DNA of 64,000 nt from a virus (Duplodnaviria; Heunggongvirae; Uroviricota; Caudoviricetes). The stretch lies in IMG/VR virus record IMGVR_UViG_3300037257_000073. The stretch is one strand, 5' to 3'. How positions within the stretch are numbered: position 1 is the first letter of the stretch; each line of letters begins with the position of its first letter. Of this stretch, positions 3,977 through 64,000 are shown piece by piece. A program made the position numbers and the translations under genes. The notes under the pieces are model-generated. The model saw only the letters and a list, made by a program, of their open reading frames with translations, made no database searches and was not told where the DNA came from.

Positions 3977-4355
3977 AATAAACTAAATTAAAACTTCCAA
4001 ATAAAATACTTAAATGTAAAAACTGATCAAATCCAATACTTACAAAGAAGTCATGTACTTGTTTGTTATTCCATAGAATTGAGTTAATTCTACTAGTTAT
4101 TGCATCAATTGCAGTATGCGTTACAAACTGAATTAAAGCAAATAATAATGATGTATACCAATACTGTGCACCGAAGTAACCTACTTCTTGTAGGATTTGC
4201 ATAGGCACATATAATATCAGCGAATAAATAGCTGCATGTGCTAATAAAGCTTTAAAACTTTTATGCTTATTTTTTGCTTGATAATCAGTTTGAAAAACAA
4301 AATCTGCTAACCAATGAAGAATAAGAATAAAGTAAATAACGATTATGTTAATCAT
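3969..4355 (-). CDS. hypothetical membrane protein
   Basis: multiple hydrophobic segments. Confidence 0.45.
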   Translation of the reverse strand: MINIIVIYFILILHWLADFVFQTDYQAKNKHKSFKALLAHAAIYSLILYVPMQILQEVGYFGAQYWYTSLLFALIQFVTHTAIDAITSRINSILWNNKQVHDFFVSIGFDQFLHLSILFGSFNLVYYG

Positions 4356-4356
4356 A

Positions 4357-4749
4357 TTAAGTTATATTATTGAATAATGACAACGCTTCAGAAAGAGCCC
4401 AAACAAAACTAGTTTTATTTCCGTAGAAACCACAATATAAACTAGCTGAATTAAGAAAGAAATATCCATCATCTTCACCTAATGTTACTACTTGAGGACG
4501 TCCGTCTATTTGAATTATTGCAACTCCACCTTGTGATGTTAAACAATAAACTCTAATAGATTCGGCATTTCTATAGACTCTACTAATTGGAAAGTTACTA
4601 TACATTCCATCTTGTCCACCTACTTCATCATTAATTGTATTGATGTCTTCACCAATAATACAATCTAGATTCATATCTCTTGCACTAGCTTGAGTATGTT
4701 TTCTATATTCTATTAATTCTTGTTGCTCTAAATATTCAGCATGTGTCAT
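4357..4749 (-). CDS. hypothetical protein
   Basis: ORF. Confidence 0.4.
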   Translation of the reverse strand: MTHAEYLEQQELIEYRKHTQASARDMNLDCIIGEDINTINDEVGGQDGMYSNFPISRVYRNAESIRVYCLTSQGGVAIIQIDGRPQVVTLGEDDGYFFLNSASLYCGFYGNKTSFVWALSEALSLFNNIT

Positions 4750-4759
4750 TATTTTAAGT

Positions 4760-5059
4760 TTAATAAGTTATGACTTGTTTTTTAAGGTCTGAAATCGGAT
4801 TATAAATTGAATAAACTACAGCATTAAAATCACTCTTTGCTTTAGTATAAGATCTTAAATCGTGAGATAGCTGGGTATACGATTCACCCCCAGTATATTT
4901 TTTATCTTTTCTTATAGTTACTATTGCTCTTAGAGCACTCTCTAATTGTAAGTAGTAACCTACGGGTTTTGATTTGTTGGTTTCTGATCCTGTTGTTGAA
5001 TACAAAACAAAATTTCCACCTTCATGTACTATTTTAAAATCCTTTTCTTCTATAATCAT
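4760..5059 (-). CDS. hypothetical protein
   Basis: ORF. Confidence 0.4.
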   Translation of the reverse strand: MIIEEKDFKIVHEGGNFVLYSTTGSETNKSKPVGYYLQLESALRAIVTIRKDKKYTGGESYTQLSHDLRSYTKAKSDFNAVVYSIYNPISDLKKQVITY

Positions 5060-23061: not shown

Positions 23062-24492
23062 TTATTTACTTGTTTTTAAATCGGCTTCAAGATAACTCTT
23101 AGCAATAGTGCGAATTTCTGTCCAATGTTGATCTCTCATTAATTTACCATTACGATAAACTATTTCAAGTTCATCAGCATATCCATTATTAATACCATAT
23201 TGTTCTTTAGAACTTTCGATAGTAATGAATTCTGATCCGGCTTTATGAAGTTTCAAAATACCAGCTTTTGAAGCTTTAGTCATATCTCCTTTAGGAGATT
23301 TACGAATATCTTTTGATTCTCCATCAATTACAGCGAAACAGCATTTTACTGCCCAACGATCTGTATCTCTGGTCAATCCTTCAACAAGCAAACCACCACC
23401 TGAACCAACCGCAAAGTTTTCACAAGACCAACCAGTTTTAATGTATTCTGAATAAATATCAACGATTGAATTTTCATTCATACCATCTCCTTGAATTAAG
23501 CCTACATTATGATTAATTACTCTGTAATCTACTTCATTTAAGTGATATCCAAAAATATTACCAAGCATTTCAGAATACTTAATCATATTTGTTAACGGAA
23601 CACCAGAATCCGGACGTAAAATAGTTCTACCTGGACGTGCGATAATACGTTGTTTGATTGCTTCTGAACCAATAACATTTTTAATGAAATTAGTATCATC
23701 ATAAGAATCAATAACAATTGATACCATAGCATCGTCACCAGCGCGATCAAATTGAGCATTGACATAATCAAATTCTCCCTGACCAGGACCAAATACAGTT
23801 GCTACTGAGTGTTCAGTTGCCCATACAGATTTTCCTACGGTTGCATCTCCGTAATAGTCTTCAATAAATTCCATTGCTGGAACATTATCAGAACCATCAG
23901 AAAAGATTAAAGCAGCAGAACCACCTAAACAAGCAGTTTCATGACCTTGAGCACCTCTTAATCCAAAATCATTAACTACATAATCCAACATAGCGTTGTT
24001 AGTAGAGATTTTGAATGATGGAGTAATACCTTTATGAATATTATACATACGAGTAGCAACGGCAACTGGATACCAATTCCACATTAACCAAGGTTCGAAG
24101 TGACTAACCATTGGTGCAAACCACTCTTCAGTAGCTTCAATTGTATAACAAACATTACCAGTTGGAACAACAGTTCCTTCTTTTACAGCTTTGATTTCTA
24201 AAGGATAATATCCTAAATCGCGAACTTTTTCCCAAATTTCTTGAGGGAAATAACCAGGGTTACCAAAAGTATTTAAACTTCTACGAGCACCACGTTCAAT
24301 ATCTTCATTAGTGACAACAGTCATAAAATATTCTTTTATGAAATATTGTATACCATAGAAAACAATATGAGAGTGTTGACCTCCTACACGAGGTTCTCCA
24401 TAAGACATAAGTCTTGTCAATCCCGAAGGACGTTGCGTCCAATGCACAAATTTATATGCATCAGTTGCGGTTGTTGGATGAAATTTTGGCAT
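23062..24492 (-). CDS. nadV: nicotinamide phosphoribosyltransferase (NadV/NAMPT)
   Basis: N-terminal FHPTTATDAYKFVHWTQ matches the NAMPT N-terminus (NILLATDSYKVTHYKQ); 476 aa. Confidence 0.8.
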   Translation of the reverse strand: MPKFHPTTATDAYKFVHWTQRPSGLTRLMSYGEPRVGGQHSHIVFYGIQYFIKEYFMTVVTNEDIERGARRSLNTFGNPGYFPQEIWEKVRDLGYYPLEIKAVKEGTVVPTGNVCYTIEATEEWFAPMVSHFEPWLMWNWYPVAVATRMYNIHKGITPSFKISTNNAMLDYVVNDFGLRGAQGHETACLGGSAALIFSDGSDNVPAMEFIEDYYGDATVGKSVWATEHSVATVFGPGQGEFDYVNAQFDRAGDDAMVSIVIDSYDDTNFIKNVIGSEAIKQRIIARPGRTILRPDSGVPLTNMIKYSEMLGNIFGYHLNEVDYRVINHNVGLIQGDGMNENSIVDIYSEYIKTGWSCENFAVGSGGGLLVEGLTRDTDRWAVKCCFAVIDGESKDIRKSPKGDMTKASKAGILKLHKAGSEFITIESSKEQYGINNGYADELEIVYRNGKLMRDQHWTEIRTIAKSYLEADLKTSK

Positions 24493-25067: not shown

Positions 25068-25406
25068 TTATAGTTTTATTAATTTAATAAATTTTGAAGT
25101 GTCTTGTTTAATAACATCGTGTTGAAATCTTTCATAAAATTTAATATCAACTGCTTCAAATTCATGAACAAACCATCCAAATTTTTGAAGTTTAATAATA
25201 TCTGCTTTAGGAAACCATTGATATAAACCCTCTAATGATTCAGTAACTGATAACCAGCCTACTAATTTAGGATCAAAATCCATTTCAAGTTTTGAATTTA
25301 AACAAAAATTAAAATCATTATGAATTAATCCTGTAAAAATACCTTTATAATCATACCATAAACCTTGATGGGTATTTATGTTACATACTCTGTAGTATTT
25401 TTTCAT
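25068..25406 (-). CDS. hypothetical protein
   Basis: ORF; ATGA start/stop overlap with the upstream gene. Confidence 0.4.
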   Translation of the reverse strand: MKKYYRVCNINTHQGLWYDYKGIFTGLIHNDFNFCLNSKLEMDFDPKLVGWLSVTESLEGLYQWFPKADIIKLQKFGWFVHEFEAVDIKFYERFQHDVIKQDTSKFIKLIKL

Positions 25407-26302
25407 TTTTCAGTATTTTTTAATAAGTCAACTAATAACTTTTTATGTTCTCCAACCAAGATTTTGTCTAGCTCAGGACCGTATGGGAACCATTTTAAGG
25501 CAGCAATATCATCTTGAGGTTGTGGACTACCAAAAGTATATTTACATTTGTATAAATGCGTCATAATTTTAGCATCATGTGAATTCTTATATCGCCAATC
25601 TTCTACACGTTTTGAACAAACGAATTCAAAGTCAGCAAGTTCAAGACCTGTTTCTTCTCTACCTTCACGACGAGCAGCAGCTTCATCGGATTCATCAGTA
25701 ACATCAACAAATCCTCCAACAAAACACCATTCTTTTTCATCAGGTTTTTGACCTAATAGAATTTCACCTTTTTCATTAAAGATTGCAACATCAACTGTTG
25801 AAAATGAGCGGGGATATTGTGAAAAAACCGAATAAATTATACCAGCTCTGAAATCAGATGATGCTAATATACGTCCGGCAACTTTCTTTCTAATATCTGT
25901 TGCAGATATATAGACTTCTGGTTCAAGTACAGTTGTTTTCCAATTTCCAGTATAATATGGAATAAACGAATCTTTACCTCCATAAAGAGTAACTGTTCCA
26001 GATGGAAAAATATCTCTTACTTTAGTACGAATTTGAGTAGACCATACTTCATTGGATTTACAATCAGCAAGTGGTACAATTGAAGATATTCTATTTCTAA
26101 AATGTGCTTCGATCATAGCTTTACGGGTAATAAAATCCAATGGATTTCTTTGAGTACCCATTGCAGATGTAGTTCCTAAGAATAAAATTACCTTTTCGTG
26201 GTTTGCAAGAACATGTTCAATTAACTTGATATGTTCAGTATGCAATTCGTGTAGCTGAAATCTCCCGATAACAACTCCAATTTCTGTTTGAGTTTCGTTC
26301 AT
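25403..26302 (-). CDS. bifunctional NMN adenylyltransferase / Nudix hydrolase (NadM-Nudix, NatV-like)
   Basis: N-terminal GVVIGRFQ nucleotidyltransferase motif; Nudix box GGFVDVTDESDEAAARREGREETGLEL; ends on TGA. Confidence 0.75.
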   Translation of the reverse strand: MNETQTEIGVVIGRFQLHELHTEHIKLIEHVLANHEKVILFLGTTSAMGTQRNPLDFITRKAMIEAHFRNRISSIVPLADCKSNEVWSTQIRTKVRDIFPSGTVTLYGGKDSFIPYYTGNWKTTVLEPEVYISATDIRKKVAGRILASSDFRAGIIYSVFSQYPRSFSTVDVAIFNEKGEILLGQKPDEKEWCFVGGFVDVTDESDEAAARREGREETGLELADFEFVCSKRVEDWRYKNSHDAKIMTHLYKCKYTFGSPQPQDDIAALKWFPYGPELDKILVGEHKKLLVDLLKNTEK

Positions 26303-42956: not shown

Positions 42957-43247
42957 TTAATTTTTAAGTTCACTATATGTTGCAACTCCATCTTTAATGG
43001 TTACTACAACTTTAATATCAATTCCTCTTACTCCTTCTTCAGTAGTAAGTTCGTAATTTTTGCCATTGAATTTAATATCAATAACATAACCACCCCAAGT
43101 TCCACTATAAATTCCATCAGGAAGTGTTACTTCCTGTGGAACTTTTACTGTTATTTTTGTGATTTTTCCCATCTTAAAACTTAATTTTAAGCATACGTTT
43201 AAATGAACCTTGTACTTTGACAATAAGTTCATCACGAACAGTTGCAT
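42957..43247 (-). CDS. hypothetical protein
   Basis: ORF. Confidence 0.35.
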   Translation of the reverse strand: MQLFVMNLLSKYKVHLNVCLKLSFKMGKITKITVKVPQEVTLPDGIYSGTWGGYVIDIKFNGKNYELTTEEGVRGIDIKVVVTIKDGVATYSELKN

Positions 43248-45330
43248 TGAAACCTAAACCAGATAACTGCTTATCTGCCGGTGCTATCATAGTGGTGTTA
43301 CCCAATACTTCAAGTACTTTACGATGTTCTGCTAATTCAGGTATTAAGTTCTCTGCGTGGAAACTACGAATAGAAGATGGAGATTTACATTTGTCTAACA
43401 TGAAGAAGTAATGTTTGTTTCCAACATTATTATCTCCCCAATGATTCGGACTCAAGCAAACTAAGTTTACTTTATGAAATTCATTGGTTTGTATATTGTA
43501 AAGTTCTCTTGAACCATTAACTGGTTCAATTTTATGATCAATAGTAAATTTACCATTTTTCAATGTAACTTCAGCAATAGTAACCCATTGATGACATTTA
43601 GTTGCAGGATATTCATATTGAAAGATTTCTCCATCAAATTCAATTTCTGCTTTACCACGACCACCTGTTGTTCTAAAATTCCAATTATGAATTTTACAAA
43701 TATACTTACCTTCTGGCATTTTGTTAATGTCAGGAAAAGTAATATTCTCAACAGGAATATATCCTGCTGGGGCTGCTGAAGTATAATCAACATCTTGAAC
43801 GCCACCAGATTGACTATCAGTACGATTATTCCAACCAACACGTCGTCCAGAACCATATGTATTATGAACAATATCATCGGCACGATGAGAATTACCAGGC
43901 ATGAATACATGTAAATCCATTAATGATTGATTAGGTTCTAGTTCATTCCAAGAATGACTAAAACGAAATACACCATCAACACGACCACCTGATGCAGAAA
44001 CTGCTTCACGTAACTGAGATTTACCAGCTAAATTACCATTGAACGTCCAACTATAGTTGTTATCCCATTTAAATATTGACTTAGAATCCGGATTATTAGC
44101 AGTAGTTAATGACACCATATTACCACCGTGATTGTTTGCTAAGAAAGCTTCAACTGATATACAAGCAGGAAGGATATCCTTCATAAATGATTCAATAGAT
44201 ACTTCTTTAACATCATCAAACTCGCTACGTTTGTGACGAGTTGACACAGCCGGTTTAACAGAATCAAAAATTGATACAGATGGAATACTACCATCACCTA
44301 CATTACTATGGAGAATTTCAGCAACTTTGATGTCGTCGAGAATTGCAAAACGTCGATTAAACGATTCAGTGTATCCGTTATTTTCCACAAACTTTTGAGC
44401 TTCCTCAATTTGTTTCTTAGTAATAGGTGCGACAGCTTTCATATAGTTAGCCGGATCAACACGTTTGTTCCAAGATTGGACAGCAGCATTTAACTCTTTA
44501 CCTTCTGATAACTCCGAGCATAACACTCCAAGTAACTCATTTCTGAATTTTGCAATAGGTAAATTGTAAGATTTTATCCAACACCATGCAGCACGTTTGT
44601 TAGCAGCAAGAGCATCATATTCTTTTTTCAAAGGTATGAATTGCTCAACTTTATACAAATGTGTTTGACCATCAAGTAATGAACCTTGAATAATCAAATC
44701 TTTTACAAGATTCAATGTATCAATGTGAATTTCTTGCATGGCGCGTTCAAATACTTCTTTCGAAGATCTGAAATCAGCCATAATTGTTGCACTTGACTTA
44801 CCAGTCTTATCAACATACATAGCTGGAATATCCAGGTGCATATGATTGAATGTAACTACTTCGTTAGGTTTAACAACACCGAATTTTTCAGCTTCTTCTC
44901 TGGTATAACGTTTATCGTTTTTGTCAATACCTAAACGAAACTTAGTAAGAGTTTTCTTACATTGTTCATAAGGTAATGAATTCAATTCATCATACGTTTC
45001 CGTGAAAATGTTTGCTATTGGAGCTTTACTTAAAGCAGCAGACAACGCGATTGTTACAGGTAAGAATTCACCAGGGCCTTCAAAATCAAATAATGAAAGA
45101 ATTCCATTAGCTGGTGTGATTGCTACGATATTACCGTAACGACGAAGGAAATTCTTACACAAATTACAATTGTGTTCAGAACTTTCCGGATCTCTAAACA
45201 TAGGATCATCTTCAAATGATTTGAGATATAAATCCCACACTTGATCACCCGTCATTTCAGACCTGAAAAGTTTACCCACTTCACACATTAGTGCAAGTTG
45301 GGCTTGAAGTTGTTTGTTAAAATTTAACAT
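43174..45330 (-). CDS. large hypothetical protein (718 aa)
   Basis: uninterrupted ORF; every Trp is TGG. Confidence 0.5.
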   Translation of the reverse strand: MLNFNKQLQAQLALMCEVGKLFRSEMTGDQVWDLYLKSFEDDPMFRDPESSEHNCNLCKNFLRRYGNIVAITPANGILSLFDFEGPGEFLPVTIALSAALSKAPIANIFTETYDELNSLPYEQCKKTLTKFRLGIDKNDKRYTREEAEKFGVVKPNEVVTFNHMHLDIPAMYVDKTGKSSATIMADFRSSKEVFERAMQEIHIDTLNLVKDLIIQGSLLDGQTHLYKVEQFIPLKKEYDALAANKRAAWCWIKSYNLPIAKFRNELLGVLCSELSEGKELNAAVQSWNKRVDPANYMKAVAPITKKQIEEAQKFVENNGYTESFNRRFAILDDIKVAEILHSNVGDGSIPSVSIFDSVKPAVSTRHKRSEFDDVKEVSIESFMKDILPACISVEAFLANNHGGNMVSLTTANNPDSKSIFKWDNNYSWTFNGNLAGKSQLREAVSASGGRVDGVFRFSHSWNELEPNQSLMDLHVFMPGNSHRADDIVHNTYGSGRRVGWNNRTDSQSGGVQDVDYTSAAPAGYIPVENITFPDINKMPEGKYICKIHNWNFRTTGGRGKAEIEFDGEIFQYEYPATKCHQWVTIAEVTLKNGKFTIDHKIEPVNGSRELYNIQTNEFHKVNLVCLSPNHWGDNNVGNKHYFFMLDKCKSPSSIRSFHAENLIPELAEHRKVLEVLGNTTMIAPADKQLSGLGFNATVRDELIVKVQGSFKRMLKIKF

Positions 45331-60103: not shown

Positions 60104-60433
60104 TTAAATACCTAATTCTTTTAGTTTACGATAAACTGTTCGTTCACTTAATCCAAGTTTTTCAGCAATTACTTTATTTGTATAATAACCTAGACTCTTA
60201 AGAATTATAATATTCTCAGATTCAGTTCTAACACCTGTAATTTCAAGCTTATTTATTGAACTAATTATTGTAAAACTTGAAAGATCAACAGCATTTGTAA
60301 TAGCTAATAACTCTTTTACAGTTATATTAGATATAATCTCTAAAGTTTGTGATTTGAAATCAACCTTAATTTTTTCCATTATTACCTGGTTTATAAGATT
60401 TATAAACTTTGTGTAATGTGTGACGTGCATCAC
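60104..60433 (-). CDS. HTH DNA-binding protein (sigma region-4 / Fis-like HTH)
   Basis: C-terminal VIAEKLGLSERTVYRKLKELGI. Confidence 0.45.
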   Translation of the reverse strand: MMHVTHYTKFINLINQVIMEKIKVDFKSQTLEIISNITVKELLAITNAVDLSSFTIISSINKLEITGVRTESENIIILKSLGYYTNKVIAEKLGLSERTVYRKLKELGI

Positions 60434-61190: not shown

Positions 61191-61460
61191 CTATCTTAAT
61201 ACCACATTAGTTATGATATCATTTCGTGTTTGGATATAGCATTCTATGGGGAAAAATGGCTCATATTCTTCTAATCTCATCTTGTATGGATATACTTTAT
61301 GTTCATGTCCAAAGACATCTTCGAACTTATTGCATGATATCCAAGTGCCTTTCATACATTTCCATGTGCTCACAATTATACTCAATATTTGGTAATACAT
61401 AATTATACTAAGTTGAATACTATAATATATAATTACGTAGTAAAAAAAAGAGAAGTACAA
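61191..61460 (-). CDS. small membrane protein
   Basis: ORF. Confidence 0.3.
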   Translation of the reverse strand: MYFSFFYYVIIYYSIQLSIIMYYQILSIIVSTWKCMKGTWISCNKFEDVFGHEHKVYPYKMRLEEYEPFFPIECYIQTRNDIITNVVLR

Positions 61461-61492
61461 AAATGTACTTCTCTTATAACATTGTTAAAATG

Positions 61493-61990
61493 TTATTTCT
61501 TTTTGGCTGGTTTAGCCGTATCAACTGTAACATCCTCAGTATCAACTGATTCGTTAACAAGTTCAAAGATAGGCATATTTTTTGCAACCTCTTTGATTTC
61601 TTTACCCTCGGCGATTTCGTCAGCAGTACGGAAAGCATTAACAGTTACAGTTTCGTGGTCTACAACTTTGATAGTTTTACCTAACAAGTCCTTAACACTC
61701 AAATTTAAACCGTTGTCAATCACGGCACGTTTTGATTGTTCGCCACTTGTGAAATAAATTCCCATTAACGTATTAGCACCAACCACGGCAACTGAACCGT
61801 TAACAAGTGCAGAGATACCGAGCCACGGTTTTCCACCCTGTGAAATAGCTTCCATTTCAACAACGGCGTCCAATTCAATTACAGTATCTTTCGCATAAGT
61901 ATCGCCACCAATTGAGGCAAAACGAGCAGGAATTTCTGAGGTTGTTAAAATACGTTTACAACCTGGAATTTGTCTTTTTTCAATATTCAT
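61493..61990 (-). CDS. hypothetical protein
   Basis: 165 aa ORF. Confidence 0.4.
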   Translation of the reverse strand: MNIEKRQIPGCKRILTTSEIPARFASIGGDTYAKDTVIELDAVVEMEAISQGGKPWLGISALVNGSVAVVGANTLMGIYFTSGEQSKRAVIDNGLNLSVKDLLGKTIKVVDHETVTVNAFRTADEIAEGKEIKEVAKNMPIFELVNESVDTEDVTVDTAKPAKKK

Positions 61991-62199
61991 AATGATAGAG
62001 TTTTGTTTGTTAGTAGTTTACTTTCCATTCAAGACCTGCTGGGGGTAGAAGAGATGACTGTCCACCCACTCGATTCATAAAAATAAAAAAATTTTTTCAA
62101 AAAAAATTATTCAGAACTTCCTAAAAATTATTTTCAATACTTTTTATATCTTCTACCTTTTAATAAAATTAATTTTACTACGCGCGCGTTCGTATATAT

Positions 62200-62460
62200 A
62201 GTAAACTTTTGCGTTTGATACAACAAATTTTGCGTATCAATATGTAAAGTTTTACGGACAGCCACATTAAGTATAGAATTATTAAGTATATATTAAGTAT
62301 ATGGAAACCTTGTAATTCACTGTGTCACAATAACTTAACCGTTTTCATACAAACTCGAGCGTATCATTTGAAAATTCCGACGTATCATTTGAGATTTTTT
62401 GCGTATCATTTGGAGTTATCTTATTGACTATTAACCGATTACAAATGATATGCTCGAAGT
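62200..62460. promoter_or_regulatory. iteron-like direct repeats at the strand switch (candidate origin or operator)
   Basis: GTATCATTTG three times in direct orientation at ~62358, 62381, 62404 (23-bp spacing) plus an inverted copy at ~62445; related TTTTGCGT(A/T)T boxes at 62209 and 62231; AT-rich tract and CGCGCGCG upstream. Confidence 0.45.
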
Positions 62461-62530
62461 AATTGTATATCAGTGACTTAACATTTTTTAACTATGTGTA
62501 TAGTATTTTTGTCACACAAATTTCTTATCT

Positions 62531-63325
62531 TTGTGTATCAAATTTAATACGATGAGTGAAGAAAAAGAAAAGAAAACAAATAGACACGTCCAAGTGCCAA
62601 ACTCTGTCGCTAACAATGTAGACAGTGATAAGAAATCTAAATACAAAAAGCACTATACTGATGTCTTAGTTTATGGTTTTCTTCGAAAAAATATGGACGG
62701 AAAAACAATGGTGGCATTTATATCCTTAAAAATTATAGCAGACTCGATTGACATGTCGGTCGGTGGTGTATCAGCTGCAATTAAAAGATTAGAAGAAGCA
62801 GGAGATGTAACAAAAATTAAAATGGAAGGTGGACGAAATCAAAATGGATATAAATTTAATCCACATTCCGACAAGTTTGAAATGTATGATTTAAGTTTCC
62901 TCGAAAATAAAGAACTTAATAGTTTACAGAAATCATATTATATGATTATGCAACCTTATTTATATATTGATAAAGAAACTGGAATAGGTAAAACTACTTA
63001 TAGTGATATTGAAATTTCAGAAATAACAGGTATATCTAAAACAGTAGCACAAGAACGTAGACGAGAATTAGAATCACTTGGTTTTATAAACAGAAGAACA
63101 ACTACAGATATGGAAGGTAACTCTTGTGAAGCACTTGAATTTAATCTTCCTAAGTTTGGACAATTTGTTATGTGTAAAATTAAAGAACACGATGTTGCAA
63201 TAACTGATTTAAATATAAAAGTAAATCAATTAGAACAAGAACTAAATCATCTAAGAAAACAAATGAAACTTAAAGGAGAATATACTCCTTACGAAGAAAA
63301 CACTAATAACGAAATAACATTATAA
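62531..63325 (+). CDS. HTH DNA-binding protein, candidate replication initiator or regulator
   Basis: two HTH-like segments (ISLKIIADSIDMSVGGVSAAIKRLEEAG; ISEITGISKTVAQERRRELESLGFI); directly downstream of the iterons; no Trp. Confidence 0.4.
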   Translation: MCIKFNTMSEEKEKKTNRHVQVPNSVANNVDSDKKSKYKKHYTDVLVYGFLRKNMDGKTMVAFISLKIIADSIDMSVGGVSAAIKRLEEAGDVTKIKMEGGRNQNGYKFNPHSDKFEMYDLSFLENKELNSLQKSYYMIMQPYLYIDKETGIGKTTYSDIEISEITGISKTVAQERRRELESLGFINRRTTTDMEGNSCEALEFNLPKFGQFVMCKIKEHDVAITDLNIKVNQLEQELNHLRKQMKLKGEYTPYEENTNNEITL

Positions 63326-63636: not shown

Positions 63637-64000
63637 ATGGAAGTAATACAACACTTCGTTCGTAATGACGACCATGATGAATTATACATTATGGAAATTG
63701 AAGGGAAAGCTTATGCTAGGATGTATTGATTCCATGATGATCCAAAATCAGTTTACTTAAACTCTTTAAGTGTTGAGAATAACGAAAGAGAACAAGGACT
63801 TGGAACTAAAATGCAGGAACTAAGAGAGAAAATAGGAATAGAACTCGGAGCTACACAATCCTTTTTATGAGTTAAACGGGATAGTTGAATGTATGAATGA
63901 TATACCCGAAGAGGTTATAACGATTTCTCAGATTACACAGATGATGATAGTATGATATGAATGATTAAAATGTTAAATGATAACAATACTAAATACAAAG
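63637..64000 (+). CDS. GNAT-family N-acetyltransferase with five in-frame TGA (partial at window end)
   Basis: frame open from ATG 63637 to the window end if TGA at 63727, 63868, 63886, 63898 and 63958 code Trp; GNAT motifs REQGLGTK and EWYTRRGYNDF; all Trp are TGA, none TGG. Confidence 0.5.

Follow-up and report, generated by a model that had tools for sequence, protein, structure and literature searches.

The DNA stretch analysed here (IMG/VR virus record IMGVR_UViG_3300037257_000073, a tailed phage of the Caudoviricetes; 64,000 nucleotides, hereafter the window) contains a 560-base intergenic region with phased direct repeats (61991-62551) followed by a gene for a tandem winged-helix protein (62552-63325), which together we take, with moderate confidence, to be a replication origin of the iteron type paired with its cognate initiator, in a large uncultured phage probably infecting Bacteroidota. 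The observed arrangement is real and highly non-random, and its reading as an origin is the one towards which we lean on comparative and structural grounds. The module is best described as iteron-type in architecture, with a protein that is RepE-like in fold but not in sequence, in a large uncultured phage group. For large uncultured phages the origin of replication is hardly ever known, and the present locus, if the reading is true, provides a concrete origin-initiator pair for widespread phages represented by contigs of 160-213 kb, as well as possible parts for replicating vectors in Bacteroidota.

The core of the repeats, CGTATCATTTG, is present in three exact copies (62360-62370, 62381-62391 and 62402-62412) with start-to-start distances of 21 and 21 bp, equal to two helical turns. 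A first-pass annotation, made from the letters of this DNA, had pointed out three direct repeats starting at what proved to be 62360, 62381 and 62402 and an inverted copy near 62445, which was found at 62442-62452 with one mismatch; the periodicity of 23 bp that it gave has to be corrected to 21 bp. Allowing up to one mismatch, CGTATCATTTG occurs 5 times in the window against 1.3 expected (0 of 100 shuffles gave 5), and 4 of these five matches fall within one 93-bp stretch. No further copy of the iteron motif was found in ~74 kb of this genome. Scanning the window for phased repeats (11-mers with up to one mismatch, spaced by 19-24, in segments of 330 bp) revealed a phased pair in 8.6% of the segments and a sole three-copy phased run in the 64 kb, at 62359-62361. 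Three repeats at 21 bp fit the usual description of an iteron array; in plasmids, iterons have been described as 2-7 direct copies of 17-22 bp that are phased with the helix, and a half-turn offset between them abolishes cooperativity (PMC4980987).

Comparative analysis revealed the same layout in the relatives of this locus. From 23 related loci fetched, 17 have enough upstream sequence for a comparison; all 17 show the gene at the head of a plus-strand operon that diverges from a minus-strand gene of 163-192 amino acids. The order of the elements was also the same throughout (17/17): a GC-rich element, A/T tracts, one to three copies of TATTAAGTATA, the repeat array, a TTAACATTTTTTAAC box, a TAnnTTTG box and the ATG. 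The arrays consist of 2-4 direct copies at 20-22 bp spacing, the second copy being degenerate in locus L019. The first-pass annotation had proposed a layout of iteron-origin or regulatory-hub type, to which absence of the repeats from relatives would have been an objection; the arrays at the same position in all 17 loci support the proposed layout, as do the RepE- and pi-like fold and the initiator-family matches of the protein described below.

The sequence of the array differs between protein clades. Clade A, which has at least 73% protein identity and includes the window, carries GTATCATTTGA three times together with one inverted or fourth direct copy. Clade B (~47-52% identity to the window protein) has two copies of TGTATCATC(G/T)A and an inverted copy, clade C (~46-49%) has four copies of (C/T)ACTAAATYTGAC, and clade D (31%) has three copies of TATCAAATTTGKC. 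Besides clade B, the inverted copy is also carried by L002, and the L009 group has a fourth direct copy in its place. Alignments within clades (A3 and A4) show drift in the spacers but no change in the repeat cores, the 11-mer tandem formed by TATTAAGTATA, the TTAACA box or the -7 box. Among the more remote relatives, L031 (a 177-kb contig) has TTAACATTTTATACA three times at 20 bp, and L027 (a 190-kb contig) encodes two tandem paralogs, each behind its own 22-bp array, with ATTTTTGCACACYS in four copies and TACCACTTTTTTTACATACCCC in four or more, the latter array reaching an assembly gap. The gap, a scaffold gap of 100 N met by the array of the second paralog (L027 3856-3955), suggests an array that is probably longer than four copies and breaks assemblies. 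In all, seven array types (those of the four clades and three in remote relatives) accompany one protein family, which cannot be chance. Because the array sequence changes with the protein clade, the pattern is the one expected of a protein and its own binding sites, and the repeats would, as judged from sequence comparison, be specific binding sites of the adjacent protein. If true, the at least seven matched protein/iteron specificities offer a natural series for DNA-recognition co-evolution.

The 11-mer, overlooked in the first-pass annotation, behaves differently from the iterons. ATTAAGTATA is found three times in the window, at 62266, 62281 and 62292, and nowhere else in it. In the related loci one to three exact copies of TATTAAGTATA occur in the same orientation and position (17/17), even where protein identity falls to 31%; none of the four clades deviates from this 11-mer, and elsewhere in the ~200 kb of fetched DNA it appears at chance frequency. 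The tandem forms a local minimum of duplex stability and belongs to the least stable 0.4% of 40-bp segments. Unwinding elements of plasmids hold repeated 13-mers (PMC4980987), which the 11-mer tandem beside the array parallels, and Rep proteins bind the repeats of unwinding elements also as single strands (PMC10602881). If the origin reading is true, the conserved 11-mer, possibly an unwinding element, is separable from the variable recognition repeats.

The structure of the encoded protein also points to an initiator. The first-pass annotation described a protein with two helix-turn-helix (HTH) motifs, in agreement with Pfam matches over the cut-off to HTH_24 (in two stretches) and HTH_36 and with an AlphaFold model (22-sequence alignment, predicted local distance difference test score of 80) that comprises two winged-helix (WH) domains and a long C-terminal helix. 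No sequence similarity between WH1 and WH2 could be detected, and an internal duplication as the source of the two domains was rejected. In a Foldseek comparison with the whole PDB, the top 29 matches were all RepE54 or complexes of RepE with iteron and DNA unwinding element (8aan and 8ac8 included), with E-values of 2e-5 to 5e-4 over ~225 columns spanning both domains; structures of these complexes have been described (PMC10602881). The pi-iteron complex 2nra followed (E 2e-3), and the tandem-WH regulator SarS was matched with E 2e-3 and a TM-score of 0.23. The predicted fold is that of a tandem WH1-WH2 initiator. Among the predicted viral structures of BFVD, the matches over the full length that ranked after two members of the family bear the names 'Replication initiator protein' and 'Replication protein O'.

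Profile searches against PHROG gave matches of all 22 family members to the replication initiation O-like and DnaD-like helicase loader families, and of 20 of the 22 to a further replication-initiation family, with best E-values of 1e-12 to 1e-13; a MarR family was matched by 7 of the 22. A clear likeness to repressors alone, which the first-pass annotation had named as the outcome that would speak against it, was not observed, given these O-like or DnaD-like matches in 22/22 and the 29 RepE structures heading the Foldseek comparison. The PHROG and BFVD matches are supportive of an initiator identity, not proof of it. The architecture of DnaD, an N-terminal WH domain with a C-terminal DnaD/DnaB_2 domain, was not found in the protein. 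The gene starts at ATG 62552 and not at TTG 62531, since the homologues begin there and the -7 box overlaps the TTG.

The protein family is large: clusters at 50% identity are represented by 824 sequences, of which 353 have E-values below 1e-10 and nearly all measure 220-280 amino acids, and the HVQVPNS motif is conserved at the N-terminus. Members lie on contigs of 160-213 kb and carry no functional names. With three different members as queries, no homologue was found in 50,697 deposited phage records; none was found in 72,556 plasmids either, and the DNA of the region had no match to phages. Assignment of WH1 or WH2 to the iteron or to the 11-mer was considered and proved impossible, both recognition helices being variable between clades; as the 11-mer is invariant down to the 31%-identity clade, these helices do not appear to read it. 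A remote family member, P0115 (350 amino acids), carries an N-terminal group-I-intron-endonuclease domain (TIGR01453, E 2e-15).

In the plasmid origins mini-F ori2, pSC101, pPS10 and P1 oriR, A/T-rich short repeats are followed by phased iterons, an inverted copy, a promoter and the initiator gene. The phage locus shares this order of parts with the iteron plasmids (mini-F ori2, R6K gamma ori, pSC101, pPS10 and P1 oriR), and pSC101 has three iterons and then inverted repeats, like the window. RepE and pi, the best full-length PDB matches, are likewise initiators of two WH domains, and as the repeat sequence of iteron plasmids is specific to the initiator, so the phage arrays vary by clade. Contrary to these plasmids, the phage protein lies outside Pfam Rep_3 and adds a C-terminal helix of ~35 residues and the HVQVPNS motif; DnaA boxes are missing from the phage region, the putative unwinding 11-mer is invariant across clades with differing iterons, and the replicon is a phage with contigs of up to 213 kb. 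The origin of lambda with its O protein, and those of lambdoid and Stx phages, also combine a WH initiator with an A/T-rich region flanked by some four phased repeats of ~19 bp, and iterons of lambdoid and Stx phages co-vary with the DNA-binding domain of the initiator, as in the family described here. The likeness to lambda O is reflected in the PHROG 'replication initiation O-like' families, which are the best phage-family matches of the window protein. However, the iterons of lambda lie inside the O gene, whereas here the array is located ~140-190 bp upstream of the gene; no gene for a P or DnaC-like loader follows the window gene, Phage_rep_O is not reached, and O has one WH domain where the window protein has two. 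An iteron origin with a dedicated early protein has a precedent in one large lytic phage, T4, whose oriE has iterons and repEA/repEB. The RepA/iteron origin reported for PLE, the Vibrio satellites, sets such a precedent in a phage satellite (PMC7145576).

According to the mechanism that we propose, host RNA polymerase would transcribe the initiator gene early from the TAnnTTTG promoter located 19 nt upstream of the ATG. The protein, with two WH domains arranged as in RepE and pi and probably dimerising via its C-terminal helix, would occupy the three phased GTATCATTTG repeats cooperatively, with all copies on the same side of the DNA. The nucleoprotein complex would then strain the adjoining TATTAAGTATA tandem, the local minimum of stability, along with the A/T tract on its far side, and melt both, and a phage or host helicase would load onto the melted DNA. 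The inverted copy, possibly with the promoter-proximal GTGTATCAAA, would permit autoregulation as in pSC101 and mini-F. Binding of the protein to the repeats, melting at the 11-mer tandem and replication start at the site are steps that we infer from the layout and the fold. The sequence GTGTATCAAA (62532-62541), which shares the iteron core, was also considered as an autoregulatory operator at the promoter and rejected as a general feature, being present only in the clade of the window.

RepE contacts the single-stranded unwinding element by the face opposite to the iteron-binding face (PMC10602881). By analogy, one may speculate that the invariant HVQVPNS motif and the WH2 wing have a RepE-like single-strand role; such a role would explain why the 11-mer is constant when the iterons change. 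A more tentative extension, doubtful at present, is that the locus represents a modular origin and initiator of a large, entirely uncultured phage group, in which the 11-mer is the unwinding or helicase-loading element, perhaps read by the HVQVPNS motif or a host factor, and the iterons are lineage-specific. A RepE-like tandem-WH initiator would in that case have gained a C-terminal helix, possibly a coiled coil, and some phages would carry two initiator-origin pairs.

Several observations weigh against the origin reading. No helicase, loader, primase or polymerase gene lies adjacent to the site. The Foldseek TM-scores to RepE are modest (0.38-0.49), names in PHROG and BFVD are assigned automatically, and the likeness at the sequence level does not go beyond generic WH domains. 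Pfam Rep_3 had no match at E-values up to 1, no Rep model of NCBIfam was matched, and Phage_rep_O gave E 0.28 and 12.2 bits against a cut-off of 28.7. The sequence profile matches in the PDB are of MarR type only (E 2e-4), and NCBIfam yields weak MarR/Lrp/Lrs14-type matches, none near the cut-off. No DnaA box TTATCCACA is present in 61991-62551 at up to one mismatch; DnaA boxes occur in many iteron-type origins, not in all. The stability scan showed that this AT-rich window holds DNA less stable than the A/T tract and the 11-mer tandem, and in the remote relative L029 the gene lacks both an array and a divergent position. Analysis of GC skew, suggested by the first-pass annotation for locating the origin, did place the cumulative minimum at the strand switch, but the signal says nothing of replication: in five relatives the skew flips back with minus-strand genes, as a coding-strand signal does, and if anything the skew of minus-strand blocks is more negative on the right of the site than on the left. 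Since the skew follows gene orientation in relatives, it is uninformative on replication and was rejected as origin evidence.

The main alternative to an origin is an early regulatory hub, which we consider possible but rather unlikely. The protein would then be a transcription factor and the phased repeats an upstream activating or silencing array for its own operon, the divergent gene or both, with the TATTAAGTATA tandem serving as a site of another factor or a promoter element. The lack of adjacent replication genes and the MarR/Lrp-type sequence matches are in favour of this, as is the position of the site between two divergent transcription units. The gene heads a short operon with a host-type promoter, and the operon content of relatives is accessory or anti-defence-like (Tad2-like in L002, thioredoxin in L004, GNAT-like here); the L027 paralogs, each with an array, fit paralogous autoregulators as well as two origins. 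Outside phage libraries, MarR, Lrp and TrmB regulators are the closest to the individual WH domains by sequence. However, all MarR-type Pfam models stay below their cut-offs (MarR 19.1 bits against 24.6, MarR_2 19.5 against 27), the window protein differs from such regulators in having two non-identical WH domains and a long helix, and its full-length fold matches RepE and pi and not tandem-WH regulators such as SarS. The operators of WH regulators are normally palindromes over the promoter, whereas the sites here are phased direct repeats ~110-170 bp 5' of the -7 box, without overlap. A regulator of many targets is disfavoured, as the absence of the iteron motif elsewhere in ~74 kb leaves no regulon visible. 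Because iteron initiators also autoregulate, regulation does not exclude an origin and the two readings can overlap. Should the hub be the true reading, the region would be where the earliest phage operon is controlled, along with a hypervariable gene that looks to be under arms-race pressure.

A packaging or genome-end site, either pac/cos-like or a terminal-repeat boundary bound by a WH protein of the small-terminase type, is very improbable. The small terminase Nu1 of lambda binds the R sites of cosB beside its own gene, and here too a WH protein with a C-terminal helix for oligomerisation is encoded directly downstream of elements that are unique in the window; furthermore, several metagenomic contigs end 0.3-2 kb from the region. 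Such ends are scattered, though, many of them in the hypervariable neighbour gene or in repeats, as for assembly breaks. No terminase family appears among the PHROG matches of the 22 members, a large-terminase gene follows in none of the loci, and the promoter of the gene is early and host-type. Least probable of all is a partition site, with the array as a centromere bound by the segregation adaptor protein of a plasmid-like phage. Plasmid centromeres such as parC and tubC are typically phased direct-repeat arrays beside the gene of the binding protein, which the locus resembles; on the other hand, no motor gene of the ParA, ParM or TubZ type is found within 10 kb on either side, and the genes encoded are those of a large phage of the lytic type, rich in auxiliary functions. 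The reading as an origin with its initiator remains the one that we favour, and the features of the region are collected in Table 1.

Table 1. Features of the intergenic region and of the two genes flanking it (positions in the window)
Feature	Position	Strand	Basis or remark
Divergent neighbour gene, 165 amino acids	61493..61990	-	Open reading frame list; monocistronic
GC-rich element, minus-strand consensus GGCCTGTTTCCnnATTTACCCCCAGCCTTAAAGGGCGAGAAAG	62021..62072	.	Alignment A2; diverged version in the window
A/T tract, alternating runs of A and T, low helical stability	62073..62176	.	Sequence; stability scan
Alternating purine-pyrimidine tract CGCGCGCGTTCGTATATATAG (CGCGCGCG..CGTATATATAG)	62181..62201	.	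Prone to Z-DNA
Window-specific insert with two inverted GTATCAA half-sites (the TTTTGCGT boxes)	62203..62252	.	Inverted repeat
Tandem of the invariant 11-mer TATTAAGTATA	62265..62301	+	Copies at 62266, 62281, 62292; candidate unwinding element
Iteron-like direct repeats (G/A)CGTATCATTTG, three copies	62359..62412	+	Repeat search; comparison
Inverted iteron copy CATATCATTTG, one mismatch	62442..62453	-	29 bp past the third direct copy
TTAACATTTTTTAAC (TTAACA) box upstream of the promoter	62478..62492	+	(Near-)invariant in clades A, B and C
Two -7 boxes, TAnnTTTG: TATTTTTG (62504-62511) and TATCTTTG (62526-62533)	62504..62533	+	Motif match
Initiator-like protein, 257 amino acids	62552..63325	+	HVQVPNS motif; WH1 ~37-113; WH2 ~124-198; C-terminal helix 206-240

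Along with the array and the 11-mer tandem, the intergenic region contains a number of elements conserved to different degrees. The GC-rich element is kept across all clades just upstream of the minus-strand gene and is unique in the window. RNAalifold gives zero consensus pairs for it, for which reason its reading as an RNA was dropped; a search of 61400-62700 against Rfam (E up to 1) found no credible RNA family. It may be a phage-specific promoter or the leader of the minus-strand gene, for which no TAnnTTTG box was found. The AT-rich tract and the adjoining CGCGCGCG run (62181-62188) noticed in the first-pass annotation both exist; the former is the 9th least stable 100-bp stretch of the 64 kb, and A/T tracts lie at the same place in every relative. 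The purine-pyrimidine tract is conserved in clades A and B and, since it is absent from L001, L002 and clade C, is probably dispensable. As for the TTTTGCGT boxes that had been placed upstream of the repeats, those at 62207 and 62228 are present there, and the third, at 62397, is iteron 3 with its flank; a segment of ~45 bp holding the first two is missing from the closest relatives, L012 and L009. The sequence GTATCAACTG, which has the same GTATCA core as the iterons, occurs twice, 23 bp apart, at 61517-61549 within the 3' end of the 165-amino-acid gene, where the pair overlies a repeated VDT peptide, so that the shared core may be fortuitous. In L013 the intergenic region is interrupted by a GIY-YIG gene (1371-2009) that separates the A/T tract from the 11-mer tandem; together with the endonuclease domain of P0115, this insertion indicates that homing-endonuclease traffic touches the locus.

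The TATCTTTG box lies 19 nt ahead of the ATG in the window, and of 11 loci compared, 10 have a TAnnTTTG box 18-28 nt ahead of the start codon, seven of them with a distance of 19 nt. The boxes at 62504-62533 agree with the Bacteroidota -7 consensus, which fits both a host in this phylum and early transcription by the host polymerase. Comparisons of other proteins of the window are in line with this. A 718-amino-acid protein (43174-45330) shares 59% and 50% identity with proteins of Cellulophaga phages phi17:2 and phi4:1, respectively, and 63% with a protein of an uncultured 462-kb phage; Cellulophaga phages are thus the nearest cultured relatives of a gene of the window. One window-encoded protein recurs unchanged on 40 contigs, the longest of 213,486 bp, and locus L024 belongs to the same genome as the window (1 mismatch in 12.4 kb), adding 9.4 kb rightward. 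Taken together, the Cellulophaga-phage relatives, the recurrent protein and the L024 extension indicate that the window is a piece of a large phage, the contigs of the group having 160-213 kb, and that its host is probably a member of Bacteroidota.

The window is AT-rich, with 26-35% GC per 2-kb bin. Divergent transcription, as the first-pass annotation had stated, is apparent from the open reading frames (ORFs): those on the minus strand fill ~62 kb up to 61990, and those on the plus strand begin at 62552. The minus-strand block encodes nicotinamide phosphoribosyltransferase, a NUDIX protein, glutathionylspermidine synthase, AAA ATPases, HNH endonucleases and many small ORFs. The first two of these lie near each other (23062-24492 and 25403-26302), which suggests a phage module for the salvage of nicotinamide adenine dinucleotide. 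The 165-amino-acid minus-strand gene ends in a strong terminator-like hairpin (61448-61475), and its product had no match in Pfam and PHROG searches. The gene at this divergent position is hypervariable: its products in relatives (163-192 amino acids) are only partly alignable, form at least three groups and match no family in any of them, and it resembles a gene under arms-race pressure. At a distance of 1.5 kb leftward from the intergenic region, the minus strand (60104-60433) encodes a further small HTH protein, of 109 amino acids; its Pfam match to HTH_36, at 25.1 bits, is at the cut-off, and no equivalent was recognised in other loci.

Directly downstream of the initiator-like gene lies a gene for a 103-amino-acid protein without significant family match in Pfam or PHROG, and the plus-strand genes after the initiator-like gene comprise small unknowns, a GNAT-like gene, an HNH gene, a 771-amino-acid ORF and PhoH. 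At the position equivalent to the 771-amino-acid ORF, L001 has a domain of the ribonucleotide-reductase large subunit. In relatives, the operon led by the HTH gene includes a Tad2-like gene of the anti-Thoeris family (L002 2247-2504) and a thioredoxin gene (L004 6488-6757), a content that fits an early or anti-defence operon.

In-frame TGA codons occur in plus-strand genes rightward of the HTH gene, with five in the GNAT-like gene (63637-64000, extending to 64008 in L024), one in PhoH (69842-70648 in the L024-extended coordinates) and three in another ORF, and all ORFs of this set stop at TAA. With TGA read as Trp, the GNAT-like product matches Pfam GNAT (Acetyltransf_1) with E 1.7e-4, just over the cut-off, and PhoH is matched over its full length with E 2e-57. 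In the 62-kb minus-strand block TGG predominates (234 against at most 36 candidate TGA), for which reason the recoding seems partial or limited to one gene set. In L027, a Gln codon of the first paralog of the initiator-like gene is replaced in the second (4001-4798) by an in-frame TAG (LAMIQQYM in the former, LAII*QYM in the latter), which suggests that this phage reads TAG as Gln.

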